This document shows, piece by piece, positions 1-21,033 of a stretch of DNA of 21,033 nt (its first letter is position 1; the number at the start of each line of letters is the position of its first letter). The notes under the pieces were generated by a model, which made no database searches, was not told the DNA's origin, and saw only the letters and a list, made by a program, of their open reading frames with translations. This DNA comes from Escherichia coli (GTDB lineage: Bacteria > Pseudomonadota > Gammaproteobacteria > Enterobacterales > Enterobacteriaceae). The DNA is taken from NCBI RefSeq assembly GCF_003334335.1, contig NZ_QOWQ01000051.1, one strand, 5' to 3'. The translations under genes and the position numbers were made by a program.

Positions 1-171
1 TCCATAAATTAACCTTCATTTGATGCTGGATTGAACATATCAAAATCAGGCAATTACACAAATCTATGTACAGGCTCGCCATGGACAGAAACTACCTGGC
101 GTCAGTCCTTGCGGGGAGCGGGCTTTCGTAGTAATACCCCGACTCTCCCCGTCCTTAAACACAACCCCCAC

Positions 172-942
172 TCACCACAACCTAAACTCATCCGCATCCT
201 GCCATGCCGGAAACTTTTCTCTATATTCCCGCAATGCTGCCATCGACAGCTCCGCATCAATGCGCGTTGCCTGATGCGCGTCGGCAGTAGCGATAATCTC
301 TCCTTGCGGATTAATCACCCGGCTGTCACCGCGATAATGGCAGCCGTTGCCATCGCTGCCGACGCGATTGCATCCCGCCACATACGCCTGATTCTCAATC
401 GCGCGGGCCGTCAGCAATGCCTGCCAGTGCAGAGAGCGCGGAGCAGGCCAGTTGGCGACGTACAGGGCGAGGTCATAATCGTTGAGATTGCGCGACCACA
501 CAGGAAAACGTAAGTCGTAGCACACCAGCGGCAAAATACGCCAGCCGCGCCATTCCACAATCACTCGCGCATTGCCCGCTTTATAATGTAGATGCTCATC
601 TGCCATGCGGAACAGATGACGCTTATCATAAAAATGTACCGTGCCGCCCGGCTCAACCAGCAAAAAGCGGTTAACCGAACCAGACTCCGTTTGTAATGCA
701 ACACTGCCTGCAATCAGCGCATTGCACTGCTGCGCCTTAGCTGTCATCCAGTTCACTACGTCATCTTGTGCTAGCGACGAAGCTGCCGCTTCCATGGCAA
801 AGCCGCTGGTAAACATCTCCGGTAGAACGATCACATCGCGCCCGGTAATACCTTCCAGTTGACGATCAAAATGACGCAGGTTGGCAGGACCATCCATCCA
901 CACCAGTGGTTGCTGCAAAAGCGTAATCTTCAAACCAGGCAC
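172..942 (-). CDS. yafV: Carbon-nitrogen hydrolase (nitrilase superfamily), omega-amidase-like YafV
   Basis: Track ORF 172..951 (259 aa) begins at a TTG; a GTG three codons in (942) gives MPGLK... and 256 aa, the length I recall for K-12 YafV. Nitrilase-family Glu/Lys/Cys context is visible (VLPEMF, YDKRHLF, LVCYDLRFP). Start choice is from memory. Confidence 0.85.
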   Translation of the reverse strand: MPGLKITLLQQPLVWMDGPANLRHFDRQLEGITGRDVIVLPEMFTSGFAMEAAASSLAQDDVVNWMTAKAQQCNALIAGSVALQTESGSVNRFLLVEPGGTVHFYDKRHLFRMADEHLHYKAGNARVIVEWRGWRILPLVCYDLRFPVWSRNLNDYDLALYVANWPAPRSLHWQALLTARAIENQAYVAGCNRVGSDGNGCHYRGDSRVINPQGEIIATADAHQATRIDAELSMAALREYREKFPAWQDADEFRLW

Positions 943-1095
943 GGTGTACAACTCCTTTATGCGAAGGGTTTTATAACTTTAACACCTTATCAGGCAGTTG
1001 CCTTAGCGCAGAATAAATTGATAACAAATGCTGATATTGGAAATATCTGATTTGCAAATTATCGTGTTATCGCCAGGCTTTAGGAGGTTAATAAC

Positions 1096-1569
1096 ATGGG
1101 CAGGATAAGCTCGGGAGGAATGATGTTTAAGGCAATAACGACAGTCGCCGCTCTGGTCATCGCCACCAGTGCAATGGCGCAGGATGATTTAACCATTAGC
1201 AGCCTTGCAAAGGGCGAAACCACCAAAGCTGCATTTAATCAGATGGTACAAGGGCATAAGCTGCCTGCCTGGGTGATGAAAGGCGGTACTTATACTCCCG
1301 CACAAACCGTAACGTTGGGAGATGAGACGTATCAGGTGATGAGCGCGTGCAAACCGCATGACTGTGGCTCGCAACGTATCGCTGTGATGTGGTCCGAGAA
1401 ATCTAATCAGATGACGGGGCTGTTCTCGACTATTGATGAGAAAACGTCGCAAGAGAAACTCACCTGGCTGAATGTGAACGATGCGCTTTCGATTGATGGT
1501 AAAACGGTGTTGTTCGCGGCGTTGACCGGCAGCCTGGAAAACCATCCGGATGGCTTTAATTTTAAATAA
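1096..1569 (+). CDS. ivy: Inhibitor of vertebrate (C-type) lysozyme, periplasmic
   Basis: 157 aa ORF with an N-terminal signal peptide (…ATSAMAQDD) and the CKPHDC loop motif characteristic of Ivy. Strong SD AGGAGG at 1083-1088, 7 nt upstream of the ATG. Confidence 0.9.
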   Translation: MGRISSGGMMFKAITTVAALVIATSAMAQDDLTISSLAKGETTKAAFNQMVQGHKLPAWVMKGGTYTPAQTVTLGDETYQVMSACKPHDCGSQRIAVMWSEKSNQMTGLFSTIDEKTSQEKLTWLNVNDALSIDGKTVLFAALTGSLENHPDGFNFK

Positions 1570-1583
1570 TTAGCGGATAAAGA

Positions 1584-1605
1584 AACGGAGCCTTTCGGCT
1601 CCGTT
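1584..1605. terminator. Bidirectional rho-independent terminator hairpin between convergent ivy and fadE
   Basis: Perfect 9-bp stem aacggagcc / ggctccgtt with a tttc loop, lying between the ivy stop (1567-1569) and the fadE stop (1612-1614). Flanked by T-rich runs on both strands (attcattt on plus, tctttat on minus). Confidence 0.55.
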
Positions 1606-1611
1606 ATTCAT

Positions 1612-4056
1612 TTACGCGGCTTCAACTTTCCGCACTTTCTCCGGCAACTTTACCGGCTTCGTCGCCAGCTCTTCCGGATCAAAGTCATCAACGTTAATAC
1701 TGCGCAGACGGCTTTCTTCAGCTTTCACCAGAATAGCGGCTTCATCTTTATCAATCAGCCCCTTCACCAGCGCGTTGTGCGCCAGTTCATCCAGACGGGT
1801 AAACGGCAGGTTTTTACCCAGCTCTTTACAGATCCGCTGATGAATTGGGTCGGCGGCAATCACATCCACCAGCGCCTCTTCCAGCAAGCCAACCGGATTA
1901 TGCTCGCTCGGCGTCAGGTACTGACCGCGACCAATGCGGGAACGGGTGGCGTTCGGCACTTGTAAAATCTTCGCCACTTTATGATCCAGCTTGTCAGAAG
2001 GTGCCAGATAATGACGTCCGGTCGGGAAGATCACCACATTCAGCAGCCCGGCAACCACGCGGTTCGGGAAGTTTTGCAGTAAATCATCCATCGCCTGTTC
2101 AGCCTGATACAGCGCATCTTGTACGCCCCAGTGCACCAGCGGCAGGTCGGCTTCATTACGGCCTTCGTCGTCATAACGCTTCAGCACGGCAGAGGCGAGG
2201 TAGAGCTGGCTTAAAATATCCCCCAGACGGGCCGAGATGCGCTCGCGACGTTTCAGGCTGCCGCCCAGCACTGCCATCGAGACATCAGAAAGCAGGGCGA
2301 GGTTGGCGCTCAGGCGGTTCAGGTGCTGATAGTAGCGTTTAGTGGCATCGCCGGTTGGCGTGCTGCTGGTTAAACCGCGCGTCAGGCCCAGCCAGAAGCT
2401 GCGAACTTTGTTGCTACCGACGTGACCGATATGTTTGAACAACAGTTTATCGAACGCGTTGACGTCATTGTTCTTCGCCGCTTCCATCTCTTCCAGCACG
2501 TACGGATGGCAACGAATCGCTCCTTGTCCGAAGATCATCATGCTGCGGGTCAGAATGTTAGCCCCTTCAACGGTGATGGCAATCGGTGCGCCCTGGTAAG
2601 CACGCGCCAGGAAGTTGCTTTGCCCGAGCATAATGCCTTTACCGCCGGTAATATCCATCGCATCAATAATCGACTGCTGCCCGCGGTGGGTACAGTGATA
2701 CTTAACGATAGCCGACAGCACGGCAGGTTTTTCGCCGAGCATAATGCCGTAGGTAATCAGCGATGCCGCAGCATCCATCACGTAGGCATTACCGGCAATA
2801 CGCGCCAGCGGCTCTTCAATCCCTTCCATCTTACCAATAGAGATTTTGAACTGACGGCGAATGTGAGCATACGCGCCGGTTGCCAGCGCTACCGATTTCA
2901 CGCCGCCGGTTGAGTTGGAAGGCAGGGTGATGCCGCGGCCTACCGAGAGGCACTCCACCAGCATCCGCCAGCCTTGCCCGGCCATTTTCGGCCCGCCGAT
3001 GATGTAATCGATCGGCACGAAGACATCTTTACCGCGCGTCGGTCCGTTCTGGAACGGTACGTTCAGCGGGAAGTGGCGACGACCAATTTCCACGCCCGGC
3101 GTGGTGGTTGGGATCAGCGCACAGGTAATGCCTAAATCTTCTGCACCGCCGAGTAATTTTTCCGGGTCGGAGAGTTTAAACGCCAGCCCAAGCACGGTCG
3201 CAATCGGTGCCAGCGTAATGTAGCGTTTGTTCCAGGTCAGACGCATCCCCAGCACCTGCTGGCCCTGCCATTCGCCCATGCAGACAATCCCGGTGTCCGG
3301 AATCGCGCCCGCATCGGAACCCGCTTCCGGGCTGGTCAGTGCAAAGCAGGGGATCTCCTGACCACGCGCCAGACGCGGCAGATAGTGATCTTTCTGCTCG
3401 TCAGTGCCGTAATGTTGCAACAGTTCGCCCGGGCCTAATGAGTTTGGCACGCCGACGGTAATCGCCAGGATCCCGCTCACGCCGGAGAGTTTTTGCAGCA
3501 CGCGAGACTGGGCATAAGCCGAGAACTCCAGCCCGCCGTACTCTTTTTTGATGATCATCGCGAAGAAACGATGCTCTTTAAGGTACGCCCACAACTCCGG
3601 CGGCAGATCCGCCAGCTCATGGGTGATCTGGAAATCATTCGCCATCCGGCAGGCTTCTTCTACCGGGCCGTCGAGAAACGCTTGCTCTTCGGCGGTCAGG
3701 CGCGGCTGCGGATAGTTATGCAGCTTTTTCCAGTCCGGCTTGCCCTGGAACAAGTCGCCCTCCCACCAGGTGGTGCCCGCATCAATCGCTTCTTTCTCAG
3801 TGCGCGACATCGGCGGCATCACCTTACGGAAACCGCGAAATACCGGCGCGGAAATCATCGACTTACGCATAGGCGCAAAGTTAAATGGCACGAGGATAAT
3901 GGCCAGAGGCACCAGTACCCACGCCGACCACAGACCAGCAACGCCGAGGGCGGCTGTCCAGGCGAGCAAAATCAGACTGCTGATAAATAAGCTCACGCGG
4001 TGATAGAACAACGCGCCGAGCAGGACAACCGTAGCGAGAATACTCAAAATCATCAT
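1612..4056 (-). CDS. fadE: Acyl-CoA dehydrogenase FadE (fatty acid beta-oxidation)
   Basis: Track ORF is 840 aa from 4134. The ATG at 4056 ([14 protein letters not shown]…) gives 814 aa, matching the FadE length I recall, with N-terminal hydrophobic segments and an acyl-CoA dehydrogenase body. An AGGGG Shine-Dalgarno lies just upstream of 4056. Confidence 0.9.
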
Positions 4057-4077
4057 AACGAAAAGCCCCTTACTTGT

Positions 4078-4094
4078 AGGAGGTCTGACCACTT
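4078..4094 (-). promoter_or_regulatory. Candidate FadR operator upstream of fadE
   Basis: On the minus strand this reads AAGTGGTCAGACCTCCT, close to the FadR box consensus with a TGGTC-N-GACC core. It sits about 30 nt upstream of the fadE start. Motif match by eye only. Confidence 0.4.
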
Positions 4095-4295
4095 GTGATG
4101 ATATGGTTGTAGTGGATGTAAAAACATTTAGCAATATGTTTACAATATAATTACAACAAAGCTCACATTGTTGCTGTTTTTATCCGCACTTCAGGTCAAA
4201 AAGTCCTGGTCATAGCACCTGCCCGTACTTCTCGCTTTTGGCGGTATCCGGTACACTGCATTTTGTCTATTACATTTATGCTGAAGGATATCCTC

Positions 4296-4874
4296 ATGTA
4301 CCAGGATCTTATTCGTAACGAACTGAACGAAGCGGCGGAAACGCTGGCTAACTTTTTAAAAGATGACGCCAATATTCACGCCATTCAGCGCGCGGCGGTC
4401 CTGTTAGCAGACAGCTTTAAAGCCGGTGGCAAAGTGCTTTCCTGCGGCAACGGCGGTTCCCATTGCGACGCTATGCACTTTGCCGAAGAGTTGACCGGTC
4501 GCTACCGTGAAAACCGTCCGGGCTACCCGGCGATTGCTATTTCTGACGTTAGTCATATTTCCTGCGTCGGTAATGATTTCGGTTTCAATGATATTTTCTC
4601 CCGCTACGTTGAAGCGGTAGGTCGCGAAGGCGATGTACTGCTGGGGATCTCCACCTCCGGTAACTCTGCAAACGTGATCAAAGCGATCGCAGCGGCGCGT
4701 GAGAAGGGAATGAAAGTGATCACCCTGACCGGTAAAGACGGCGGCAAAATGGCTGGCACGGCGGATATCGAAATTCGCGTACCGCACTTTGGTTATGCCG
4801 ACCGCATTCAGGAGATTCACATTAAAGTGATCCATATCCTGATCCAGTTGATTGAAAAAGAGATGGTTAAGTAA
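4296..4874 (+). CDS. gmhA: Sedoheptulose-7-phosphate isomerase (SIS domain), LPS core heptose biosynthesis
   Basis: Track ORF starts at 4263; the internal ATG at 4296 ([10 protein letters not shown]…) gives 192 aa, the length I recall for GmhA/LpcA. SD-like AAGGAT precedes it. Confidence 0.9.
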
Positions 4875-4880
4875 GTCTGG

Positions 4881-5017
4881 CGTAGGCCGGATAAGACGTT
4901 TACGCCGCATCCGGCATTTGTGCGCTGATGCCTGATGCGACGCTGACGCGTCTTATCATGCCTACAAATCTGTACGCGAACCGTAGGCCGAATAATGCGT
5001 TCACGCCGCATCCGACC
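4881..5017. repeat. REP/BIME cluster (three REP palindromes) between gmhA and yafJ
   Basis: Imperfect palindromes of the E. coli REP type: gtaggccggataagacgtttacgccgcatccggca, gcctgatgcgacgctgacgcgtcttatcatgcctac and a third copy at 4981-5016. Confidence 0.8.
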
Positions 5018-5079
5018 TGAAAATTCTTAAATCAATCTTCGCCGGGGGCCATGCGCTCCCGCTGTTGTGGAGGTTACCC

Positions 5080-5847
5080 ATGTGCGAATTGCTCGGGATG
5101 AGCGCCAACGTCCCTACCGATATCTGCTTTAGTTTCACCGGGCTTGTACAGCGTGGTGGTGGAACCGGGCCACATAAAGATGGCTGGGGCATTACCTTTT
5201 ACGAAGGTAAAGGCTGTCGCACATTTAAAGATCCACAACCCAGCTTTAATTCCCCCATCGCCAAACTTGTCCAGGACTACCCGATAAAATCCTGTTCGGT
5301 GGTGGCTCATATTCGCCAGGCTAATCGGGGCGAGGTGGCGCTGGAAAATACTCACCCATTTACCCGCGAGTTATGGGGGCGTAACTGGACTTATGCCCAT
5401 AACGGACAACTGACGGGCTACAAATCACTGGAAACCGGCAACTTCCGCCCGGTAGGCGAAACCGACAGCGAAAAAGCCTTCTGCTGGCTCCTGCATAAAT
5501 TAACGCAGCGTTACCCGCGCACACCGGGCAACATGGCGGCGGTATTTAAATATATCGCCTCACTGGCGGATGAACTGCGGCAGAAGGGCGTTTTCAACAT
5601 GCTGCTTTCGGACGGGCGCTATGTAATGGCGTATTGCTCGACTAATTTACACTGGATCACCCGCCGCGCGCCGTTTGGCGTGGCAACGTTGCTGGATCAG
5701 GATGTGGAAATCGACTTCAGCTCGCAGACCACACCGAATGATGTGGTCACGGTGATTGCAACACAGCCGCTGACGGGCAATGAAACCTGGCAAAAGATTA
5801 TGCCAGGCGAATGGCGCTTATTTTGCCTCGGGGAGCGTGTAGTTTGA
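5080..5847 (+). CDS. yafJ: Class II (Ntn-type) glutamine amidotransferase-like protein YafJ
   Basis: Track ORF starts at 5065; the ATG at 5080 gives MCELLGM… with Cys at position 2, the class II GATase nucleophile arrangement, and 255 aa. GGAGG SD at 5069-5073. Confidence 0.85.
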
Positions 5848-6558
5848 TGCCAGTTGTGGCTGCACAACTTCGTGGCTTAACGGCTTGCTGACCACGTAAC
5901 GACCATTGACCACAGAAACGGTTGGTGGCTTACGGGTTTGCTCAAAGTAGTCGTAACCCGGCTTCAGTTGCTCCCAGAAGTCCTTAAAGTTGGAATATTT
6001 ATGGCGCTTCATATTGGCGTCGGTCATGCGGAACGGGTAAATACTCACTTGCACGCTCGGCTGACCAAACACCAGCGCACCAGTAACGAACTGGAATATC
6101 TCATCAATACCCTGATTGGTCATTGCGTAGCAGCCGATGGAAACACAATCGCCGTGGATCATCAGGTATTTCCCTTCATAACCATGCGCACGGTCATAGG
6201 CATTGGGGAAACCAATATTAATCGCTTTGTAGTAACGGCTGTCTGGTTTTAACTGATTACGCTGGACGCTATAAAACCCTTCCGGGCTTTTGAAATCGCC
6301 CTGACGCTGTTTTGGCCCTAAGCCGCCGGAATATTTACAGATTTTATAGCTGTCGAGCAGTTGATATTGCTCGCCCATTTTGACGTAGAGATCGAGCGTA
6401 CGTTCTTCCTTGAAGATCTGGATGTAGACAGGGGATCCCATCAACTGCTGCTTATACTCTTTGCTCACAGGCGTGGTAGAGCTACTGCTGCCCAGCAAAC
6501 CGGCAAATGAAACGCACGGGATCAACAACATCGCAAGAATTAATGCGATTTTACGCAT
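5818..6558 (-). CDS. yafK: L,D-transpeptidase-fold (YkuD) periplasmic protein YafK
   Basis: 246 aa with an N-terminal signal peptide and the YkuD catalytic region [12 protein letters not shown]. Its 3' end overlaps the 3' end of convergent yafJ by 30 bp. Confidence 0.85.
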
Positions 6559-6713
6559 ACTGCTTATTCCTTGATAAAACGGTTACACACGCCAGGACGG
6601 CAAAATGGATCCCAAATCGGAATAGTCTGGATTTGGAAGGCTCACATTATCACCAAAAGAGTTTTACGCAAGCCTGTCGGCGCAGGGTTTACAAATTTCA
6701 TCGGAAGCGGGCT

Positions 6714-6992
6714 TTACCCAAAGAGCGCCGCGTGAGTTCCAGTTCTCTCAAATCGTAAAAGTTTATCGGTAAGTTTGTAAATCAGGATCCAGTCCGGTTC
6801 GACATGAGCATCGCGATAACCTTTCCATGAACCTTGCAGCGGGTGGTCTTTATAAACAGCTGGAAGCGGTAAAGTATTATTGATAAGAAGCGTCATAAGA
6901 TATTTCAATTTATTCATATCCTTATGACGCTTTTGTGCAAGTTTTACATCCTTTGAATATTGTCCCGAGTATTCAATATCCCTTTGAATCAT
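6714..6992 (-). CDS. yafQ: YafQ toxin (RelE-fold, ribosome-dependent mRNA interferase)
   Basis: 92 aa ORF MIQRDIEYSGQYSKDVKLAQKRHKD… lying 2 nt downstream of dinJ on the same strand. Recognised from memory as YafQ. Confidence 0.9.
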   Translation of the reverse strand: MIQRDIEYSGQYSKDVKLAQKRHKDMNKLKYLMTLLINNTLPLPAVYKDHPLQGSWKGYRDAHVEPDWILIYKLTDKLLRFERTGTHAALFG

Positions 6993-6994
6993 AT

Positions 6995-7255
6995 TTAAAT
7001 TCCTAATTTATCAAATAAATCATCGGCGTCTTTGGCCTTATGAACATCAATGCCAGCTTCGCTGTTTTTGATTGATTGAATGGTTAATTGATTAGGCTCG
7101 CGTAAATCAAACGGCAATGCCTTTTCACGCGCGACCTTTGTGAGGGTTATGCGAACCAGGTCAGAGATGGTCAGCCCCATCCCGGCCAGTACGTCCGCTG
7201 CCTGATTCTTCAGATCTTCATCGATTCGGGCGCGAACAAACGCGTTAGCAGCCAT
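6995..7255 (-). CDS. dinJ: DinJ antitoxin (RHH DNA-binding)
   Basis: 86 aa ORF MAANAFVRARIDEDLKNQAADVLAGMGLTISDLVRI…, immediately upstream of yafQ with a LexA box in its promoter. Confidence 0.9.
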   Translation of the reverse strand: MAANAFVRARIDEDLKNQAADVLAGMGLTISDLVRITLTKVAREKALPFDLREPNQLTIQSIKNSEAGIDVHKAKDADDLFDKLGI

Positions 7256-7271
7256 TGGGGTATCTCCTGTG

Positions 7272-7287
7272 CTGTATATTTATTCAG
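7272..7287 (-). promoter_or_regulatory. LexA (SOS) box in the dinJ promoter
   Basis: Plus strand ctgtatatttattcag; minus strand CTGAATAAATATACAG, fitting the CTG-N10-CAG SOS box pattern. Located 17-32 nt upstream of the dinJ start codon. Confidence 0.7.
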
Positions 7288-7464
7288 CTTGAATTGTAGC
7301 TCAAATGAGCAACAGCGACAATCCATGAGTAATTTAATAAACGGATGTTTTTACATAATTAACTGAAATATATATGTTAATTTTATAATAATGGTTTATT
7401 AAGTTTGTTCAGAAACGATCCGGGATACACTGCAACATTAAAGCATGACCAGCCATTATTGAGT

Positions 7465-8214
7465 ATGTCCTTGCCGTCGATTCCATCCTTTGTATTGTCG
7501 GGATTACTGTTGATTTGTTTGCCGTTTTCTTCATTTGCCAGCGCCACCACATCACATATCTCTTTCAGCTACGCCGCCCGCCAGCGGATGCAAAACCGTG
7601 CGCGTTTATTAAAACAGTACCAAACTCATCTGAAAAAGCAGGCCAGCTATATTGTGGAAGGCAATGCCGAAAGCAAAAGGGCGCTACGCCAGCACAACCG
7701 GGAGCAGATAAAACAGCATCCAGAATGGTTTCCTGCTCCGCTCAAGGCGAGTGACAGACGCTGGCAGGCGCTGGCGGAAAACAACCACTTTTTAAGCAGC
7801 GACCATCTGCATAACATTACCGAAGTGGCGATTCACCGCCTGGAGCAGCAGCTTGGCAAGCCTTACGTCTGGGGCGGTACGCGGCCTGATAAAGGCTTTG
7901 ACTGTAGCGGGTTGGTTTTTTATGCCTACAACAAGATCCTTGAGGCTAAGCTCCCGCGCACGGCCAATGAGATGTACCACTATCGCCGGGCAACGATTGT
8001 GGCGAACAACGACCTGCGCCGGGGAGATTTGCTGTTTTTCCATATCCACAGCCGCGAGATAGCCGATCATATGGGCGTGTATTTGGGCGATGGGCAATTT
8101 ATCGAGTCGCCACGTACCGGCGAAACCATTCGGATAAGCCGATTAGCCGAACCTTTCTGGCAGGACCATTTTTTGGGCGCGCGCAGGATTTTGACGGAAG
8201 AGACGATTTTGTAG
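7465..8214 (+). CDS. yafL: NlpC/P60-family putative peptidoglycan endopeptidase lipoprotein YafL
   Basis: Track ORF starts at a TTG (7405); the ATG at 7465 gives 249 aa with a signal/lipobox-like N-terminus. NlpC/P60 catalytic Cys context GFDCSGLVFYAY and downstream His are present. Confidence 0.8.
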   Translation: MSLPSIPSFVLSGLLLICLPFSSFASATTSHISFSYAARQRMQNRARLLKQYQTHLKKQASYIVEGNAESKRALRQHNREQIKQHPEWFPAPLKASDRRWQALAENNHFLSSDHLHNITEVAIHRLEQQLGKPYVWGGTRPDKGFDCSGLVFYAYNKILEAKLPRTANEMYHYRRATIVANNDLRRGDLLFFHIHSREIADHMGVYLGDGQFIESPRTGETIRISRLAEPFWQDHFLGARRILTEETIL

Positions 8215-8296
8215 GACGGATAAGGCGTTTACGCCGCATCCGGCAGTTGTACGCAGGTGCCTGATGCGACGCTGGCGCGTCTTATCATGCCTACGA
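8211..8296. repeat. REP pair (BIME) between yafL and rayT
   Basis: gtaggacggataaggcgtttacgccgcatccggca overlaps the yafL stop, followed by gcctgatgcgacgctggcgcgtcttatcatgcctac. Confidence 0.8.
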
Positions 8297-8389
8297 GCCC
8301 GCGAATATTTGCGAGCCGCTTTCCCGATATAAAACAACCTCATTGCCAACCTTTCCTTTTCTTCTTACCGTTGAGAAAAAGGAGTCGCC

Positions 8390-8887
8390 ATGTCTGAATA
8401 TCGTCGTTATTACATCAAGGGGGGAACATGGTTTTTCACGGTGAATTTACGAAATCGTCGAAGCCAACTTTTGACCACCCAGTACCAGATGCTCCGTCAC
8501 GCCATTATTAAAGTTAAGCGAGACAGGCCTTTTGAAATCAACGCCTGGGTCGTTTTGCCAGAGCATATGCACTGTATCTGGACATTACCTGAAGGCGATG
8601 ATGATTTTTCCTCGCGCTGGCGGGAAATTAAAAAGCAATTTACCCATGCTTGTGGATTGAAAAATATCTGGCAACCACGTTTTTGGGAGCACGCCATCCG
8701 CAATACCAAAGATTATAGGCATCATGTTGATTATATTTATATAAATCCAGTAAAGCATGGTTGGGTAAAGCAAGTGAGTGATTGGCCATTCTCAACGTTC
8801 CATCGCGATGTCGCGCGAGGGTTATATCCCATCGATTGGGCGGGGGACGTAACGGATTTTAGTGCCGGGGAGCGTATCATTTCATAA
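8390..8887 (+). CDS. rayT: REP-associated tyrosine transposase RayT (TnpA-REP, IS200/IS605 HUH family)
   Basis: 165 aa with the HUH motif (PEHMHCIW) and a C-terminal Tyr region. REP arrays flank it on both sides, the REPtron arrangement. Confidence 0.85.
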   Translation: MSEYRRYYIKGGTWFFTVNLRNRRSQLLTTQYQMLRHAIIKVKRDRPFEINAWVVLPEHMHCIWTLPEGDDDFSSRWREIKKQFTHACGLKNIWQPRFWEHAIRNTKDYRHHVDYIYINPVKHGWVKQVSDWPFSTFHRDVARGLYPIDWAGDVTDFSAGERIIS

Positions 8888-8890
8888 TTG

Positions 8891-9095
8891 TGCGCAGATG
8901 CCTGATGCGACGCTAGCGCGTCTTATCATGCCTACAAACTTGTGCCGGATCGGTAGGCCGGATAAGGCGTTTATGCCGCATCCGGCAGTTATGCGCAGAT
9001 GCCTGATGCGACGCTGGCGCGTCTTATCATGCCTACAAACTTGTGCCTGAACGGTAGGACGGATAAGGCGTTCACGCCGCATCCGGCAGTTGTGC
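8891..9095. repeat. REP/BIME array (at least four REP palindromes) between rayT and lfhA
   Basis: Alternating copies of gcctgatgcgacgct(a/g)gcgcgtcttatcatgcctac and ggtagg(c/a)cggataaggcgtt(t/c)a(t/c)gccgcatccggca. The array ends 16 nt before the lfhA stop. Confidence 0.85.
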
Positions 9096-9110
9096 ACCAA
9101 TGCTGGATAC

Positions 9111-11204
9111 TTACATCAACGCCCCCATAATCTTCAACTCCAGCTCATCCGGCACTTCGTTATACGACAGCACATGCAGCCCCGGCGCAAACAACCTTGC
9201 ATAACGCGCCAGCAAAGGGCGCAGCTGCGGTGGCACCAGCAGCACCGGGTCTTTCCCCGCCGCTTTCATCTGCTCTTTCACCTGTGGCATCGTACTCTGG
9301 AACTGGTTGAGCATATTCGGATCGACCGGCACGCTGTCGAGCATCACTTTCCCGCCCTGTTGCGCCTGATTCACCACGTTGGTCAGCAGATTTTCCAGCT
9401 CATTATTCAGCGTATACACCGTCAGCTCCTGCTTGCGAACGAACGGATGGGTAATGCTGCGCCGCAATGCCAGGCGCACATCGGCCGCCAGCAGAATATG
9501 ATCTTTCGTCACCGTGCTACTGGCGACCAGCACGGTGGCGATGGTGACGATATCGCGCAGGGAAACGCCTTCGGTCAGCAGCGCCCGGTACACTTTCAGC
9601 AACTGGCTGTAATTGAGCGCCGCGCTCAAATCTTCCGCCAGACGCGGTGCCGTCGACGATAAACGGTTATGCAACTGCGTAATATCATCATAGTTAAACA
9701 AATCAGGAATATAGCTGCGCACAATCTTATTTACATGGGTAGCGATCACGCTGGCGCTGTCGATCACCTGATACCCCATATTCAGCGCCTTCGCTTTCTG
9801 CGCCGCCTGGATCCAGGTGACCGGCATCCCGTACGCCGGGTCGTTCCCCTGCACGCCGTCAATCTCGCCGTAGGTTTCGCTGGAGGGCAGGGCCATCAGT
9901 TTATCCGCCGGAATATCCGCTTCATCAGCCTTTATGCCGTTGATGAAAATGGCGTACTGACTGGGCTTAAGGCGGAAGTTTTCCCGAATGCGGATCTCCG
10001 GCAGCAGCACGCCGTTGCCGTCAGAAATCACCTGCCGCACGCCGCGAATCCGCTGGGTGAGCGGGTTACCCTGTGCTTTGTCCACCAGCGCCACCAGTTT
10101 GTAACCGAGGCTTAAACTGATAGGCTCGATCAGCGGAATGGTTTCCCAACTGACCTGCTGCTCGCTGGTTTCGGTGATGGTGCGGGTCAGCGTTTCGAGG
10201 CTTTTCTCTTCCGCCTCCGCCGCCAGCGGCTGTTTGCTCATCCGCCAGCCGGTAAAACCAAGCAGGGCGCTGAACAGCAAAAACGGCAGGTGCGGCATTC
10301 CCGGTACCACCGCCAGCACGAACATAATCCCGGTGGCGGTGTAGAGCACCGACGGGCTTGCCAGCAGCTGGTTACGCACGTCATGGGCGATATCGCCGTT
10401 GTCGCTGACGCGGGTGACGATAATCGCCGCCGCGGTGGAGAGCAGCAGGGAAGGGATCTGCGCCACCAGGCCGTCGCCGATGGTCATCAGCACATACTGC
10501 TGGAAGGCAGCATCGGCGCTCAGGTTGTATTTGAAGATCCCGATACAGACGCCGCCGATCAGGTTGATCGCCAGAATCATCATCCCGGCGATGGCGTCCC
10601 CGCGCACAAACTTCGATGCCCCGTCCATCGCGCCGTAGAAATCGGCCTCGCTGGCAACATCTTTACGCCGGGTTTGCGCCTGCGCCTGGTTGATCAATCC
10701 GGCGTTAAGATCGGCGTCAATCGCCATCTGTTTGCCGGGCATCGCGTCTAAGGTAAAGCGGGCAGAAACCTCGGAAATACGCTCGGCCCCTTTGGTGACG
10801 ACAATAAAGTTGATGATCATCAGGATGATAAACACCACGAAGCCGACGACAAAGTTGCCGCCGATCACCACCTGACCAAACGACTCAATCACCTTACCCG
10901 CCGCGCCCGCGCCGAGATGCCCGTGCAGCAGCACCACGCGCGTAGAAGCAACGTTAAGCGTCAGGCGCATTAAGGTGGTGATCAGCAAAATGGTCGGGAA
11001 CAGGCTGAATTCCAGCGGTCGTTTCGCCGACACCGCCACCAGCAGCACCATCACCGCCAGCACAATGTTGAAGGTGAACAGAATATCCAGCAGCGCAGGC
11101 GGCAGCGGCAAAATAACCATCGCCAGAATACACAGGATCACCAGCGGCACGCCGAGATTGCCGCCGCGCAGCAGCGCGAGGAACGATTTAGTTGTTTTCG
11201 CCAT
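9111..11204 (-). CDS. lfhA: Flagellar type III export apparatus protein, FlhA homolog (Flag-2 LfhA)
   Basis: 697 aa with N-terminal transmembrane segments and the FHIPEP signature region (VILPLPPALLDILFTFNIVLAVMVLL). A GAGGTG Shine-Dalgarno precedes the ATG. Clearly distinct in sequence from what I recall of E. coli Flag-1 FlhA. Confidence 0.85.
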   Translation of the reverse strand: MAKTTKSFLALLRGGNLGVPLVILCILAMVILPLPPALLDILFTFNIVLAVMVLLVAVSAKRPLEFSLFPTILLITTLMRLTLNVASTRVVLLHGHLGAGAAGKVIESFGQVVIGGNFVVGFVVFIILMIINFIVVTKGAERISEVSARFTLDAMPGKQMAIDADLNAGLINQAQAQTRRKDVASEADFYGAMDGASKFVRGDAIAGMMILAINLIGGVCIGIFKYNLSADAAFQQYVLMTIGDGLVAQIPSLLLSTAAAIIVTRVSDNGDIAHDVRNQLLASPSVLYTATGIMFVLAVVPGMPHLPFLLFSALLGFTGWRMSKQPLAAEAEEKSLETLTRTITETSEQQVSWETIPLIEPISLSLGYKLVALVDKAQGNPLTQRIRGVRQVISDGNGVLLPEIRIRENFRLKPSQYAIFINGIKADEADIPADKLMALPSSETYGEIDGVQGNDPAYGMPVTWIQAAQKAKALNMGYQVIDSASVIATHVNKIVRSYIPDLFNYDDITQLHNRLSSTAPRLAEDLSAALNYSQLLKVYRALLTEGVSLRDIVTIATVLVASSTVTKDHILLAADVRLALRRSITHPFVRKQELTVYTLNNELENLLTNVVNQAQQGGKVMLDSVPVDPNMLNQFQSTMPQVKEQMKAAGKDPVLLVPPQLRPLLARYARLFAPGLHVLSYNEVPDELELKIMGALM

Positions 11205-12327
11205 CCAGTTTAAGCACCTCTTTGGGAATGGAAATATGTCTGTTCAGGGCCGGGCGCGGCTGTGCACCCTCGCGCCAGTGTTTCATTTGCAGGACGTAGG
11301 TCAGAACGTGGGCGATGGCCCGGTAAAGCTGAAACGGAATTTGCTGGTTCACCTGGGTGGTGTAGTAAACCGAGCGCGCCAGTCGCGGGAACTCGACCAC
11401 TTCCACCTGATTCTCAGCGGCGACCTGGCGAATATAGAGGGCGATTTCATCGGTGCCTTTCGCCACCACAAACGGCGCGGCGGCGCGCGACGAGTCATAC
11501 TGCAACGCCACGGCGTAGTGGGTCGGGTTGGTGATCACCACGTTGGCTTTCGGCACCACTTTGCGAATTTGCCCCATCGCCAACTGCCGTTGCAGACGCC
11601 GCACGCGCGCCTTCACTTCCGGCTTGCCTTCCTGGTTTTTATACTCTTCTTTCAGCTCCTGTTTGGTCATCTTCAGCCCTTTGGTAAACAGGGCTTTCGC
11701 CAGCGGCACGTCGATTAACGCAAAGAAGATAAACAGGATGACAAAGTTGCGCATCACGCAGGCGTAGAGCGATAAACCCTCATTCATCGCCAGTTTGAAC
11801 GGTAGCGCCTGCAGGCCGAGAAAGGCGGCAAAGTTATTGTGCAGGCTTACCCACAGCATCACCAGCACCACCACCGACTTCACCGTCATCTTTCCCGTTT
11901 CCGCCAGATGTTCACTGGAAAACAGCCGCCCAATGCCTTTTAACGGGCTGATTTTGCTGAAATCCGGGAGGATTTTTTTCGGCAGAAACAGCCAGCCGCC
12001 GGGCACCAGCGAAGAGAGTAGCGCGGCAGCGGGCATCGGCAGCAAGGTGAGAATAAACTTGCCGAGTATTAACAGGTGATGGCGCAGAAACTGGCCGATC
12101 ACCTCCGGGTTATTAATCTCCTGCGCGTACTGATGCACGCTGATAAAACTCTCGCGCACAAAATCGGCATACCACGGGAAGCTGCTGGAGATCACCACAA
12201 ACGCCGCAAACAGGCTCGCCGCCAGCCCCATATCCTTCGAGCGCGGCAGTTGCCCCTCTTCACGCGCTTTACGCAGCTTTTGCGCCGAGGGTTTTTCTGT
12301 TTTTTCTTCGCTGCTGCTATCCGCCAT
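11188..12327 (-). CDS. lfhB: Flagellar export switch protein, FlhB homolog (Flag-2 LfhB)
   Basis: 379 aa with an FlhB-like N-terminus (…EKTEKPSAQKLRKAREEGQLPRSKD) and the conserved NPTH autocleavage motif (VVITNPTHYAVAL). Its stop overlaps the lfhA start by 17 nt. Confidence 0.85.
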   Translation of the reverse strand: MADSSSEEKTEKPSAQKLRKAREEGQLPRSKDMGLAASLFAAFVVISSSFPWYADFVRESFISVHQYAQEINNPEVIGQFLRHHLLILGKFILTLLPMPAAALLSSLVPGGWLFLPKKILPDFSKISPLKGIGRLFSSEHLAETGKMTVKSVVVLVMLWVSLHNNFAAFLGLQALPFKLAMNEGLSLYACVMRNFVILFIFFALIDVPLAKALFTKGLKMTKQELKEEYKNQEGKPEVKARVRRLQRQLAMGQIRKVVPKANVVITNPTHYAVALQYDSSRAAAPFVVAKGTDEIALYIRQVAAENQVEVVEFPRLARSVYYTTQVNQQIPFQLYRAIAHVLTYVLQMKHWREGAQPRPALNRHISIPKEVLKLDGENN

Positions 12328-13099
12328 AGTGACCTTTCAGCGCGTCGAGTTGCTGCAACACAAAATTCGCCAGATGCAGATAGTGATCCGGCAGGTTGTA
12401 GAGCAGGGTGGCAAAGCAGACCAGCCCCGCCAGCATGTTGATGGGAAAACCGAGTGAAAAAAGGTTCAGCGGCGGCGCAATGCGGTTGAGCAGGCCAAAG
12501 CAGCCCTGCACAATCAGCATGATAAAAGTGGTTGGCAGCGCCAGCAGCGATGCGGACGCCAGCACCCAGCTAAAGGCCAGCGCGATGGTGCGCAGGGTTT
12601 GCGGATGCAGCGCGTTGCCAATCGGCCAGTAGGTAAAGCCCTTATACAGCACACTCACCAGCAGCAGATGCCCGTCCATGGCAAAAAACAGCAGGATCGC
12701 GTAGACGTTGATGAGCTCCGCCAGCACGGTGGTCGATGCGCCACTGCTCGGGTCGTTCATCACCGCCATGCTCATCCCCATATTGAACGAGAGAATTTGC
12801 CCGGCCAGCTGTAGCGCCAGAAACAAAAACTGAAACATCAGCCCGAATAACATGCCCCATAAAATTTGCTCCACCGTCAGGATCAGGCTGTTGAGTGAAA
12901 GCAGGTCGTGGGGAATGGGATGCGGAATTAACGGCGTGATGATGATTGCCAGCGCCAGCGACAAAATAATCCGCACGCGCACGGTCAGGGCGCTGTTATC
13001 CAGCACTGGCACATAGCGCAGAAACGCCATAATGCGCACAAAGGGAAACCACAGCCCCAGCGCCAGATCCATCAGTTGCGTAACGTCGCTTGTGCGCAT
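12317..13099 (-). CDS. lfiR: Flagellar export gate protein, FliR homolog (Flag-2 LfiR)
   Basis: Polytopic membrane protein. The start at 13099 (MRTSDVTQLMDLALG…, 260 aa) sits 2 nt upstream of the lfiQ stop codon; the track offers an upstream start at 13150 (277 aa) that would lie inside lfiQ. Confidence 0.75.
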   Translation of the reverse strand: MRTSDVTQLMDLALGLWFPFVRIMAFLRYVPVLDNSALTVRVRIILSLALAIIITPLIPHPIPHDLLSLNSLILTVEQILWGMLFGLMFQFLFLALQLAGQILSFNMGMSMAVMNDPSSGASTTVLAELINVYAILLFFAMDGHLLLVSVLYKGFTYWPIGNALHPQTLRTIALAFSWVLASASLLALPTTFIMLIVQGCFGLLNRIAPPLNLFSLGFPINMLAGLVCFATLLYNLPDHYLHLANFVLQQLDALKGHYGG

Positions 13100-13100
13100 C

Positions 13101-13373
13101 TTAATGCACCAGCAGGGCGGCCTGGGTAAACAGGTGAATGCAGAGATCATGCAACTGGATAATCATCCATTTGCCGCACACGCCCAGCACCACCAGCGTG
13201 ACAATCAGCCTCGGCAAAAAGCTCAGGGTCTGTTCGTTAATCTGCGTTACCGCCTGGAACACGCTCACCAGCAGGCCGACCAGCAAACTCGGCACCACCA
13301 GTACCGAAACCAGCAAAATCACTACTTTTATGCCGCTGGCGACAATGTCGGCGGCAACGTCTACGGTCAACAT
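13101..13373 (-). CDS. lfiQ: Flagellar export gate protein, FliQ homolog (Flag-2 LfiQ)
   Basis: 90 aa with two hydrophobic helices, placed between the FliP and FliR homologs as in fliPQR operons. Confidence 0.8.
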   Translation of the reverse strand: MLTVDVAADIVASGIKVVILLVSVLVVPSLLVGLLVSVFQAVTQINEQTLSFLPRLIVTLVVLGVCGKWMIIQLHDLCIHLFTQAALLVH

Positions 13374-13375
13374 AA

Positions 13376-14128
13376 TCAGCCCAGCCCCAGCCCGCGAATG
13401 CTGGTGGTGAGCGTGCCGATGGTCAGCGACCAGCCGTCGATCAGCACAAACAGCATCAGCTTAAAGGGCAGCGAAACAATCAGCGGCGACAGCATCATCA
13501 TCCCCATCGCCATCAGTACGCTTGCGACAATCAGGTCGATAACCAGAAACGGGATGTAAATCATAAAGCCAATCTGGAAAGCGGTTTTCAGCTCGCTCAA
13601 CACATAGGCGGGCACCACGATAGAGAGATCCTGGTCGGCGGCATTGCCCTTCGCGCCTCCGATGGTCATGATTTGCGCCATCGCTTTTTTGTCGGTCTGC
13701 GCCAGCATAAAGCGTTTGAGTGGCGTCGCGGCGGTGCTTAACGCATCGGTCAGGGTAATCTGATCGTTTTCGAACGGCACTACTGCGTGGTCGTAAATAT
13801 TGAGCCAGATGGGGCGCATCACCAGCATGGTGAGGGAGAGCGCAATGCCAATCAGAATGCGGTTTGGCGGCGTTTGTTGCAGCCCTAGCGCCTGGCGCAG
13901 CAGCGACAGCACGATAATAAAGCGCGCAAAGCAGGTCATCATCAGCGCCATCGTCGGCAGCAAACCGACGAGGGTCATCAGAATCAGTACCTGAATTTTG
14001 ACGCTGTACTCCTGAGTGTTGCCGTGGGTGACCACGTTAAGCAGCGCAATATCGCCGCCCTGGGCGATTGCCAGCGGCGCAAGCGCCAGCAGCCCAAGGC
14101 CCAGCGTCAGTTGAGTGCGGCGTTTCAT
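13376..14128 (-). CDS. lfiP: Flagellar export gate protein, FliP homolog (Flag-2 LfiP)
   Basis: 250 aa with an N-terminal signal peptide (…LALAPLAIAQ) and a FliP-like transmembrane core. Its start overlaps the lfiN stop by 4 nt. Confidence 0.85.
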   Translation of the reverse strand: MKRRTQLTLGLGLLALAPLAIAQGGDIALLNVVTHGNTQEYSVKIQVLILMTLVGLLPTMALMMTCFARFIIVLSLLRQALGLQQTPPNRILIGIALSLTMLVMRPIWLNIYDHAVVPFENDQITLTDALSTAATPLKRFMLAQTDKKAMAQIMTIGGAKGNAADQDLSIVVPAYVLSELKTAFQIGFMIYIPFLVIDLIVASVLMAMGMMMLSPLIVSLPFKLMLFVLIDGWSLTIGTLTTSIRGLGLG

Positions 14129-14496
14129 GGTGCCAGGTCGTTGATATCGCGGGTGTTAAATTCCAGCACGCGCAGGCCGTACTTCTCGTTGACCACCACC
14201 ACTTCCGCTTTGCCCAGCAGGATATTGTTCACTTTAATATCCAGCGGCTCCCCGGCGAGTTTATCCAGCTCAATCACCGTGTCGTCGTCGATGTTAAGGA
14301 GGTCGGCTAACATGATCTCCACCGACGACACTTCCAGCGTTAAGGTCACCGGAATGCGTTTTAGCAGCGTCATCGAGTCGGAAAAACGGTCTTCCAGGCG
14401 GGTGACCAGCGTTTCAGCGTCGGCGGATTTTGCGACAGGCGCAACTTCATCGGTGAGGCCAAAATCCCCGGCTAAAATATCTTCTTGCTTACTCAT
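14125..14496 (-). CDS. lfiN: Flagellar motor switch / C-ring protein, FliN homolog (Flag-2 LfiN)
   Basis: SpoA-like C-terminal domain (…VTLTLEVSSVEIMLADLLNIDDDTVIELDKLAGEPLDIKVNNILLGKAEVVVV). The start at 14496 (MSKQEDI…) is chosen for coupling to the lfiM stop; the track's longest start is 14556. Confidence 0.75.
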   Translation of the reverse strand: MSKQEDILAGDFGLTDEVAPVAKSADAETLVTRLEDRFSDSMTLLKRIPVTLTLEVSSVEIMLADLLNIDDDTVIELDKLAGEPLDIKVNNILLGKAEVVVVNEKYGLRVLEFNTRDINDLAP

Positions 14497-15340
14497 GGCT
14501 ATTCTCATTTTTGCCCGCCAGCTCCGACAAAAACAGTTTGTCTTTGTCTTCCACAATCAGGGCGCTAAATAATTCAGATTGCCCAATCGCCACCGGGAAC
14601 GTTTCTCCCAGCGAGATGGGTAAAATATCCCCGGCTTTTATCTGCGTGAGATCCGCGACATTCATCGATAGCTCGGCGATTTTGACGTTCAGGGTCAGCG
14701 GCAGGGAGCGGATGATCTCTTTAATCAGGGCCGGTTTATTGACGGATTTCGCCACCTGCTGCGGTTTACTGTGCTCGCTGTGGCGGATCAGATTTAAAAT
14801 AAAATCGGTGTGGGCGTCGTCGAGCAAAATACGAAAACAGCTCTCTTCATCGCCCGCAAGGGTAAAGGTTAATTGATACGCCCAGTGGGTAATCACCGTG
14901 CTGCTGTCCAGCTTTAATTTCAGCGCAATACCGGAGGTTTGCAGATTAAATATCAGCGTGCAGATATCCAGCGCGAGTCGGTTCTTTAATCGTGTTTCGG
15001 TTTTGGTCGGCAGGCCGTTATGCGCTTTCGCCTCTTCAAGAGACGACTCCAGACCATAAAAATTGCCCAGCAGCATTAACAGCAAGGAGCGATCAATATC
15101 AAACGCCAGATGCCCGACCTGGGAAATCATTAGTTCAGCGTTTTTATTAATAATATCCATTTCGCAGCCAATCTTTTTTAAGGTGATATTGCTGCGATGC
15201 TTTTTGAGAAAGTAGCTGCCCAGATGCGAATCAATCACGTCAAAATTCCCCGTAAACAGGGTCGGCAGGTGATGGTAGGGGCGTCCGAGCCGATTACCTT
15301 CTAATTTAAAGATGCCTGGCGTTTTACTGTACTTCAGCAT
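14489..15340 (-). CDS. lfiM: Flagellar motor switch protein, FliM homolog (Flag-2 LfiM), short form
   Basis: 283 aa. The C-terminal region (…LTQIKAGDILPISLGETFPVAIGQSELF…) resembles the FliM SpoA-like domain. No LSQxEIDALL-type N-terminal peptide is present. Confidence 0.75.
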   Translation of the reverse strand: MLKYSKTPGIFKLEGNRLGRPYHHLPTLFTGNFDVIDSHLGSYFLKKHRSNITLKKIGCEMDIINKNAELMISQVGHLAFDIDRSLLLMLLGNFYGLESSLEEAKAHNGLPTKTETRLKNRLALDICTLIFNLQTSGIALKLKLDSSTVITHWAYQLTFTLAGDEESCFRILLDDAHTDFILNLIRHSEHSKPQQVAKSVNKPALIKEIIRSLPLTLNVKIAELSMNVADLTQIKAGDILPISLGETFPVAIGQSELFSALIVEDKDKLFLSELAGKNENSHE

Positions 15341-15485
15341 GGCTTACTTTCTCTGCTGTAATGGTATGGGCGATTTTGTGCACGCAAATCCGGCAGTGAC
15401 ACAAGGTGAGGTATTAAATAGAGGGGGAGTGAAAGGGGCAAATTATTAATAGGATGAAAAAATAATTAAATTATTAAAGGGCTAG

Positions 15486-15602
<117 letters not shown>

Positions 15603-15726
15603 ATGGATAACTCATTGTTTACCATAAAATAATATTTTTATTATCGTTTAATTCGAACTTGTTAATCCCGCCGGTGATACGCTTCACAATATCCTGTTTT
15701 CTGTCGCTACTGATATCGTTCACCCT

Positions 15727-16713: not shown

Positions 16714-16727
16714 CCCGGAAGTTAAAA

Positions 16728-17069
16728 ATGAGCATTACCACAATCAACAGCACCATGCAGGCGCAAATCATGCAGGACGTGCAGCGGATGCAGGCCAACG
16801 CCCAGGCGCCGGTGCTACCCGCCATGACCTTCAGTTCCACAGACCCGGACGTGTCGTTTAACCGCATTATGTACGGCGCGCTTGGTCATGTTGATCAGTT
16901 CCAGCAGGTGGCGGAGCTGCAGCAAACGGCTGTCGACACGGGCAAAAGTGATGACCTGGCAGGTGCGATGATCGCCAGCCAGCAGGCGTCGCTCTCTTTC
17001 TCCGCGCTGGTGCAGGTGCGCAATAAAATCGCCACCGGGTTTAACGACCTGATGAGTATGTCGATCTAA
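16728..17069 (+). CDS. lfiE: Flagellar hook-basal body protein, FliE homolog (Flag-2 LfiE)
   Basis: 113 aa small protein directly upstream of the FliF homolog, with a FliE-like C-terminal region (…ASQQASLSFSALVQVRNKIATGFNDLM). Confidence 0.75.
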   Translation: MSITTINSTMQAQIMQDVQRMQANAQAPVLPAMTFSSTDPDVSFNRIMYGALGHVDQFQQVAELQQTAVDTGKSDDLAGAMIASQQASLSFSALVQVRNKIATGFNDLMSMSI

Positions 17070-17073
17070 CCCT

Positions 17074-19708: not shown

Positions 19709-19711
19709 CCC

Positions 19712-20956: not shown

Positions 20957-21033
20957 CATAAGCGCTAACTTAAGGGTTGTGGTATTACGCCTGATATGAT
21001 TTAACGTGCCGATGAATTACTCTCACGATAACT
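20957..21033 (+). mobile_element. IS186 (IS4 family) left end with the start of its transposase; element continues beyond the window
   Basis: The terminal sequence cataagcgctaacttaagggttg… matches the IS186 inverted repeat as I remember it. An ATG at 21012 opens MNYSHDN…, the IS186 transposase N-terminus. The preceding host sequence GGGGATGATCCCC fits the IS186 G-run/C-run target preference. Confidence 0.8.

Follow-up and report, generated by a model that had tools for sequence, protein, structure and literature searches.

The yafJ-yafK gene pair

The DNA analysed here, referred to below as the window, is a 21,033-nt segment of an Escherichia coli chromosome that carries fadE, gmhA, yafJ, yafK (also named dpaA and ldtF), yafQ, dinJ and yafL. 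The yafJ gene, with an annotated ATG start at 5080, is convergent with yafK, and the last 30 nt of the two coding sequences are the same DNA (Table 1). Read on the + strand, this DNA is TTA TTT TGC CTC GGG GAG CGT GTA GTT TGA, which encodes YafJ residues 247-255 (LFCLGERVV) followed by the yafJ stop, TGA at 5845-5847. Read on the − strand, it is TCA AAC TAC ACG CTC CCC GAG GCA AAA TAA, which encodes YafK residues 238-246 (SNYTLPEAK) followed by the yafK stop, seen as TTA on the + strand. The codons of the two frames are aligned such that codon position 1 faces position 3, and position 2 faces position 2.

A first-pass annotation, made from the sequence alone, had claimed that the 3′ ends of yafJ (+) and yafK (−) share 30 nt. 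The claim is exact to the nucleotide, and RefSeq agrees. In RefSeq K-12 MG1655, yafJ occupies 244327-245094 and dpaA occupies 245065-245805, with an identical 30-nt overlap (MG1655 positions convert to window positions with a checked offset of 239247). The annotations of EC600 and of a divergent strain (95.8% identity) likewise have both coding sequences and the 30-nt overlap, and 5424 of 5426 complete E. coli genomes carry the locus. E. coli YafJ proteins of 308 and 322 aa were considered as possible stop-loss variants and rejected, since they have internal duplications and a normal C-terminus. The feature is already known: every current E. coli annotation has the overlap, a published list of excludons names the pair, and a published table gives the Rho termination regions.

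Each reading frame is a genuine protein gene, as judged from homologs, domains, PDB matches and the published enzymatic function of YafK. YafJ is a class II/Ntn-type glutamine amidotransferase-like protein (Pfam GATase_4, PF13230 on homologs) with 7650 homologs at E <= 1e-20. Its match to PDB 1TE5 (2.3e-100) spans residues 1-252, so the LFCLGE sequence encoded by the overlap is part of the conserved domain. YafK has a YkuD domain and is identical to the construct of PDB 8IKR, which covers residues 20-246. The protein, as DpaA, is a YkuD-family amidase that detaches Lpp from peptidoglycan (PMC8263019, PMC10653827). The DpaA crystal model ends at residue 229, or at residue 224 after V8 trimming, and the tail from 230 to 246 is absent from it; residues 238-246, which are encoded by the overlap, therefore lie outside the fold. 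In every respect tested, yafJ and yafK form a conserved, convergent, overlapping pair of protein-coding genes.

Table 1. Features at the 3′ ends of yafJ and yafK, in window coordinates
Feature	Position	Strand	Description
yafJ CDS	5080..5847	+	255 aa; ORF list and RefSeq annotation
yafK (dpaA, ldtF) CDS	5818..6558	−	246 aa; ORF list and RefSeq annotation
Convergent coding overlap, 30 nt	5818..5847	both	codons in register, phase 123:321
TTA	5818..5820	both	Leu247 codon of yafJ; TAA stop of yafK on the opposite strand
yafJ codons 254-255 and TGA stop	5839..5847	both	opposite YafK Tyr240, Asn239 and Ser238
Conserved stem-loop	5786..5807	−	11 nt 3′ of the yafK stop; within yafJ codons 236-243
U-rich tail UUUCAUU	5779..5785	−	directly after the stem-loop
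Hairpin AGTTGTG-GCTG-CACAACT	5852..5869	+	just 3′ of the yafJ stop
Rho region antisense to yafJ	5528 (MG1655 244775)	−	~290 nt beyond the yafK stop (PMC7815308)
Rho region antisense to yafK	6358 (MG1655 245605)	+	~510 nt beyond the yafJ stop (PMC7815308)

Conservation of the overlap and constraint on its codons

Orthologous loci were collected with YafJ as the query and one genome per GTDB species; the 80 closest loci were listed, with roughly 500 further matches. The closest 80 include Escherichia, Citrobacter, Enterobacter, Salmonella, Klebsiella, Raoultella, Kosakonia and Kluyvera, as well as Leclercia, Cedecea, Buttiauxella, Siccibacter, Erwinia, Pantoea, Mixta, Edaphovirga and others. A convergent yafK with a 30-nt overlap is found in all 80 of the closest species representatives (Enterobacteriaceae and Erwiniaceae; 82 of 82 loci), a count to be read with the proviso that the species are related and that species counts overstate the number of independent events.

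More distant orthologs were examined through the contigs that encode them. Photorhabdus, Edwardsiella, Providencia and Musicola have a 30-nt overlap, with Leu247 of YafJ encoded by TTA or CTA. In Yersinia and Serratia the yafK stop is fixed and the yafJ stop is shifted, leading to overlaps of 27 nt and 66 nt, respectively, and Leu247 is TTA in both. The genes of Limnobaculum and of the Budviciaceae strain CWB-B4 are convergent with 6 nt between the stops, while those of Budvicia overlap by 4 nt (CTAG); all three use CTG for Leu247. Vibrio, Aeromonas and Agarivorans retain fadE-gmhA-yafJ without an adjacent yafK, and the Leu247 codon is CTG in the first two and TTG in Agarivorans. A check of the orthologs for a mis-called C-terminus, on which the first-pass annotation had made its claim depend, found none; both stops are conserved in 86 taxa. 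This comparison shows that orthologs share the overlap, which is not the product of a stop mutation in a single strain.

Codon use at Leu247 provides additional evidence for selection on the position of the yafK stop. Among the closest 80 species, Leu247 is TTA in 58 and CTA in 22, whereas these two codons make up 7.3% at 20 other conserved leucine columns of yafJ. When the six further overlapping taxa are added to the closest 80, Leu247 is TTA or CTA in 86 of 86; in the taxa without a long overlap, it is CTG or TTG in 6 of 6. Loss of the yafK stop in E. coli would lengthen YafK by 57 residues. With the positions kept in 80 of 80 species and Leu247 restricted to xTA, the comparative data argue that the placement of both stops is beyond chance.

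The codons between the two stops show that the frames constrain each other in turn. Variation in yafJ codons 248-253 is nearly all synonymous for YafJ (TGT/TGC, CTC/CTG/CTT, GGG/GGT/GGA/GGC and CGT/CGC/CGA), and these same changes are consequently non-synonymous in YafK (T/A, E/Q/K, P/T/S/A and T/A/S). At codon 254, among those of the closest 80 species that have Val or Ile, valine is GTA in 58 of 58 and isoleucine is ATA in 14 of 14, while GTA makes up 9.8% of the valine codons elsewhere in yafJ. At codon 255, valine is likewise always GTT (60 of 60) and isoleucine always ATT (13 of 13). The remaining species, mostly Erwiniaceae, have other residues at codons 254-255. The first base of these two codons is G or A, an exchange that switches between Val and Ile in YafJ and is silent in YafK Tyr240 and Asn239. 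The yafJ stop is TGA in all 80 of the closest species. These codon choices indicate that, at 5839-5847, the YafK frame constrains the wobble bases of yafJ, with the roles of the two frames reversed relative to codons 248-253.

Synonymous diversity is reduced on both strands. It is 0.60 of the expected value at yafJ codons 246-255 and 0.60-0.73 over codons 236-255, and it is 0.50 of the expected value in the last 10 aligned codons of yafK. As read from sequence comparison, the shared DNA is under double coding constraint.

RNA structures and transcript ends within the partner genes

Because the overlap is real, no intergenic terminator is possible, and each mRNA covers at least 30 nt of the partner gene as antisense. 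With no spacer between them, each gene can have its termination signals only within the other. The statement in the first-pass annotation that the genes have no terminator between them thus holds as far as the overlapping stops are concerned; it needs the qualification that a conserved, terminator-like stem-loop of yafK lies inside yafJ.

This stem-loop has arms CCUGGCA and UGCCAGG, which form 7 bp (5 G-C) closed by an 8-nt loop, with a predicted energy of −12.0 kcal/mol alone and −14.6 kcal/mol in context, and 5 of the 7 bases in the tail that follows it are U. When the 45 nt past the yafK stop were compared with dinucleotide shuffles, the mean z was −3.23, with 86% of the closest 80 species below −2; for same-strand control windows the mean z was −0.28, with 6% of species below −2. 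The wobble positions of yafJ codons in the stem are also held: Pro242 is CCA in 74 of the 80 closest species, compared to 14% elsewhere in yafJ, and Thr236 is ACC in 68 of 69, compared to 59% elsewhere. A CCG codon for Pro242 would keep the pair on the + strand (U.G) but would break it on the − strand (A/C mismatch). The Yersinia stem-loop has 10 bp, including two G.U pairs that are valid on the − strand only, and the Musicola stem-loop also has 10 bp, extended through different inner bases.

Other observations limit how strongly the stem-loop can be argued. Pair counting in the closest 80 species finds 96% of cells paired and a compensatory change in 1 cell only, and RNAalifold, run on 80 aligned yafK 3′ flanks, did not return the structure. 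Given the near-zero covariation and the RNAalifold result, the support for the stem-loop consists of wobble conservation and the shuffle z-scores. The structure follows in part from a conserved Trp...Pro-Gly protein motif, and it is missing from Photorhabdus, Providencia and Edwardsiella, all of which keep the overlap. Rfam has no family match in or near the overlap.

Several other candidate structures were examined. The hairpin just 3′ of the yafJ stop is not conserved, being broken up in other species and in a second E. coli (L002), and is probably non-functional. The yafJ 3′ flank as a whole gave raw folding energies equally strong as those of the yafK flank, but its dinucleotide-shuffle z was −1.15, compared to −0.37 for controls; once its higher G+C and the shuffling are taken into account, the apparent structure is largely gone. 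An RNA element as the explanation of the QPQLAS motif was dropped along with the idea of a yafJ stem-loop. Terminator-like matches on the + strand at 5801-5819 have 5-bp stems and lie upstream of the yafJ stop, where they would truncate the mRNA. A bidirectional intrinsic terminator was also rejected. The stops leave no DNA between them. On the + strand the conserved hairpin at 5786-5807 precedes the yafJ stop and is therefore of no use to yafJ, and the closest T run, TTATTTT at 5818-5824, starts 11 nt after the stem. The pair resembles the bidirectional terminators of Ju et al. (2019), as these are presented in PMC7815308, in being convergent with scant room for termination signals. It differs from them, on the same account, in having no intergenic A-tract/U-tract hairpin and in having a conserved hairpin that is U-rich on one strand only.

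Evidence on where the two transcripts end comes from the study of Adams et al. (2021; PMC7815308, Supplementary file 2), which used DirectRNA-seq with and without bicyclomycin (BCM) and reported a Rho termination region on each strand of the locus. In the region antisense to yafJ, upstream/downstream reads were 122/20 without treatment and 269/289 with BCM (Rho score 6.55; p = 2.8e-17). In the region antisense to yafK, they were 118/28 without treatment and 131/190 with BCM (Rho score 6.11; p = 3.0e-16). The positions are coarse, being derived from 800-nt windows. As a gauge of rut-like composition, C/G ratios of 1.0-1.39 were obtained for 5817-5545 (− strand) and of 1.25-1.79 for 6004-6120 (+ strand), which is a mild C excess only. 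Separately, yafJ-dpaA is among 165 convergent excludons of MG1655 detected by ExcludonFinder in half or more of 58 RNA-seq samples (PMC12288877, Table 1). The first-pass annotation had proposed that each transcript extends into the other gene as antisense, and the Rho regions on both strands, together with the excludon listing, support this. While the data are consistent with read-through from the two genes, antisense RNA at the Rho regions could instead arise at internal promoters. No curated Term-seq 3′ end for yafJ or yafK is given in Supplementary files 1 and 3 of PMC7815308, which may reflect low expression, and the TERMITe and SMRT-Cappable-seq supplements have no entry for mapped 3′ ends of either gene.

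Dar and Sorek (2018; PMC6061677) reported that mRNAs terminated by Rho have their 3′ ends at stable stem-loops and their rut sites a short way downstream. The arrangement at yafK is similar: the stop is followed by the stem-loop, then by a mildly C-rich stretch, and then, 0.3 kb downstream, by the bicyclomycin-sensitive region. The yafK stem-loop differs from the usual protective structures of that study in being followed by a U-rich stretch. By analogy, the stem-loop is probably a 3′-end stabiliser or a weak, leaky intrinsic terminator of the yafK mRNA.

A stronger version of the second possibility, in which the stem-loop is an efficient intrinsic terminator, is a tentative reading that we consider doubtful. 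Most yafK transcription would then end ~40 nt past the stop, and the antisense RNA over yafJ would be short and would matter little. The stable, G-C-rich stem with its U-rich tail is consistent with this, as are the non-random folding in 86% of the closest 80 species, the held wobble positions, and the strand-specific G.U pairs of Yersinia. There is also precedent, since rho-independent terminators are predicted within the partner for 23 of 116 (~20%) convergently overlapping E. coli genes (PMC2174442). However, the run of U is short and broken, and a terminator consensus scan made no call at the stem-loop; we infer that the scan counted an extra G-T pair, after which only 4 T fall in the next 8 bases. 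An intrinsic terminator would be expected to have a 3′ end mapped at its U tract. No Term-seq 3′ end is listed there in PMC7815308, and the bicyclomycin-sensitive region on the same strand lies ~250 nt further downstream, which implies substantial read-through.

Origin, maintenance and meaning of the overlap

The account that we consider likely is that yafJ and yafK are a genuine, ancient tail-to-tail pair that arose by a stop shift, was frozen by coding constraint, and terminates through Rho within the partner genes, with the stem-loop contributing on the yafK side. Under this account, yafK/dpaA would have become convergent to yafJ early in Enterobacterales. The yafK frame would then have extended into yafJ as far as the complement of Leu247, where TTA or CTA reads as TAA or TAG, after Budviciaceae had branched off; the direction of this shift is taken from three Budviciaceae genomes and the assumed basal position of Budviciaceae. 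A stop-mutation route is known for convergent overlaps (PMC2174442).

Once formed, the overlap has been held in place by the proteins that it encodes, as sequence comparison shows. The C-terminal LFCLGE of YafJ sets the first six codons of the overlap, and the YafK tail, TLPEAK, varies wherever yafJ changes synonymously. In the other direction, the YafK stop holds Leu247 at xTA, and the Ser-Asn-Tyr of YafK fixes the TGA stop of yafJ and the third bases of the two codons before it. Coding constraint alone may have been enough to freeze the arrangement.

Transcription would end inside the partner gene in both directions, as suggested by the published bicyclomycin-sensitive Rho regions 0.3-0.5 kb beyond both stops. 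Termination within the partner gene means that the yafJ and yafK mRNAs would be mutually antisense over far more than 30 nt. The 3′ end of yafK would be set by Rho and the stem-loop, and that of yafJ by Rho alone. The stem-loop would either block 3′ exonuclease trimming of Rho-terminated yafK transcripts or terminate weakly. Interference between yafJ and yafK is a possible by-product.

In many respects, the pair resembles the convergent overlaps described by Lillo and Krakauer (2007; PMC2174442), who found 58 such pairs in E. coli. As in that class, conserved protein genes of opposite orientation overlap at their 3′ ends in phase 123:321, a phase that accounts for 33% of convergent overlaps of at least 5 nt, and terminators are confined to the coding sequence of the partner. 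The overlap of yafJ and yafK is 30 nt, unlike the modal overlap of 4 nt. The pair adds to this class a documented age, covering most Enterobacterales, and a constraint that appears at the level of a codon (Leu247 as xTA).

An alternative explanation is that the overlap, along with the want of efficient terminators, is kept as a selected regulatory excludon, in which transcription of gmhA-yafJ and RpoS-dependent transcription of dpaA repress each other by RNA polymerase collision, or by RNase III cutting of the sense-antisense duplex, such that expression is mutually exclusive. We regard this as unlikely. The pair resembles excludons in that the transcripts overlap, the pair is named in the MG1655 list (PMC12288877), and the overlap is conserved in synteny; gene pair and overlap are kept across most Enterobacterales. 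Classical excludons, however, involve overlapping UTRs together with reciprocal expression or RNase III processing, whereas in yafJ-dpaA the coding sequences themselves overlap. The listing adds little, since overlapping coding sequences necessarily pass a coverage criterion, and validation by p19-captured dsRNA was not feasible for convergent excludons (PMC12288877).

Expression data are also relevant to the excludon model. The dpaA (ldtF) promoter is RpoS-dependent and is induced in stationary phase, where its activity peaks (PMC6428754), and the two promoters may therefore fire under different conditions; moreover, the cell envelope is the site of action for both gmhA and dpaA. None of the experiments or datasets consulted shows reciprocal expression of the pair. 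The Rho-limited antisense transcripts on both strands (PMC7815308) are consistent with the model, but the fact that Rho removes the antisense RNA points to tolerated noise and not to a signal. Finally, coding constraint on the two stops and on the YafJ C-terminus fully explains the conservation.

A more elaborate version of this idea, which we consider quite improbable, is that the overlap and the embedded stem-loop together are a selected coupling device, making transcription of gmhA-yafJ, which encodes an LPS core synthesis function and an uncharacterised amidotransferase, antagonistic to that from the RpoS-dependent dpaA promoter through convergent polymerases and duplex RNA. If this were true, envelope tethering, through the detachment of Lpp from peptidoglycan, would be tuned against LPS synthesis, and a function beyond coding constraint would keep the arrangement in place in most Enterobacterales.

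An annotation artefact, in which one C-terminus is mis-called and the true coding regions lie apart, is next to inconceivable: long overlaps in prokaryotic annotations are frequently mispredictions (PMC2478687), but such mispredictions mostly affect start codons and are irrelevant to a tail-to-tail overlap, a stop codon is not a prediction (the frames are open to 5847 and 5818), the conservation of both stops in 86 taxa already refutes the idea by ortholog comparison, the use of Leu247 codons indicates selection on the yafK stop, and the recombinant DpaA that was crystallised covers residues 20-246.

The overlap is an ordinary but sound finding, and its significance outside the locus is small. 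What is new is how deeply it is conserved, that Leu247 is limited to xTA, that codon constraint passes from one frame to the other, and that a stem-loop is embedded in yafJ; these details are useful but unsurprising. They serve those who engineer yafJ or dpaA. Tagging or deleting the 3′ end of either gene changes the partner gene, a clean deletion of yafJ takes away the stop and the stem-loop of dpaA, and synonymous changes to yafJ codons 236-256 are not neutral. More generally, the locus shows clearly what keeps a tail-to-tail overlap in place: one leucine codon is limited to the two rare synonyms that serve as stops on the opposite strand, dominance at the codon level shifts between the frames within the overlap, and an RNA stem-loop of one gene is encoded by the synonymous sites of the other.

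Low sequence variation at the two ends of yafJ

The conserved tail motif of YafK, QPQLASNY, shows almost no variation across Enterobacteriaceae, and it sets the wobble bases of the final two yafJ codons. The motif adjoins an indel-rich stretch and falls outside the crystal model of YafK, which covers residues 36-229. Synonymous diversity in yafJ itself reaches its minimum at the other end of the gene, in the first 10 codons, where it is 0.44 of expected; Leu5 is encoded by CTC in 77 of the 80 representative species of Enterobacteriaceae and Erwiniaceae. This low diversity at the start of yafJ probably reflects a constraint imposed by translation initiation.

The length of YafJ also varies. Two longer YafJ variants from E. 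coli and relatives, P0001 and P0002 (308 and 322 aa), owe their extra length to in-frame internal tandem duplications of ~50-70 residues, and their C-terminus is normal. P0001 was found on 107 contigs. YafJ of Vibrio and Aeromonas carries a C-terminal extension of 14-26 residues.

Gene order around yafJ and yafK

The order fadE, gmhA, yafJ persists out to loci of Vibrio, Aeromonas and Agarivorans (L087, L088 and L092), where yafK is not adjacent to yafJ. Two Budviciaceae loci (L091 and L094) have two tandem YkuD-domain genes downstream of yafJ, whereas other Enterobacterales have a single dpaA (yafK). In the window, yafK is immediately preceded on its own strand by the dinJ-yafQ toxin-antitoxin pair, in which dinJ stops 2 nt short of the start of yafQ; read-through from this operon could provide an added input to yafK transcription.

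Features located in the window
Feature	Position	Strand	Detail
K-12 match	78-10823		identity 99.97%
REP-type element	4885-4962		Rfam naRNA4 (RF02564)
yafJ diversity minimum	5080-5110	+	first 10 codons
QPQLASNY	5839-5862	-	YafK residues 233-240
dinJ-yafQ	6714-7255	-	toxin-antitoxin pair
REP-type element	8214-8291		Rfam naRNA4 (RF02564)
rayT ORF	8390-8887		REP-associated tyrosine transposase
REP-type element	8956-9033		Rfam naRNA4 (RF02564)
Region with second flagellar cluster	9111-21033		FlhA, FlhB, FliR, FliP, sigma-54 activator, FliF, FliG, FliH
REP-type element	15523-15599		Rfam naRNA4 (RF02564)

REP-type elements and the source strain

One of the four REP-type elements lies in the gmhA-yafJ spacer, and the rayT ORF has such an element on either side. 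For one of the four, naRNA4 scores on both strands in Rfam.

To the right of the K-12-matching part lies a second flagellar cluster. In K-12 its counterpart is a truncated flhA pseudogene that overlaps lafU, whereas in the window the cluster is intact. Given this intact cluster and a K-12 match confined to 78-10823, the source is a strain other than K-12, one whose Flag-2-like locus is complete.
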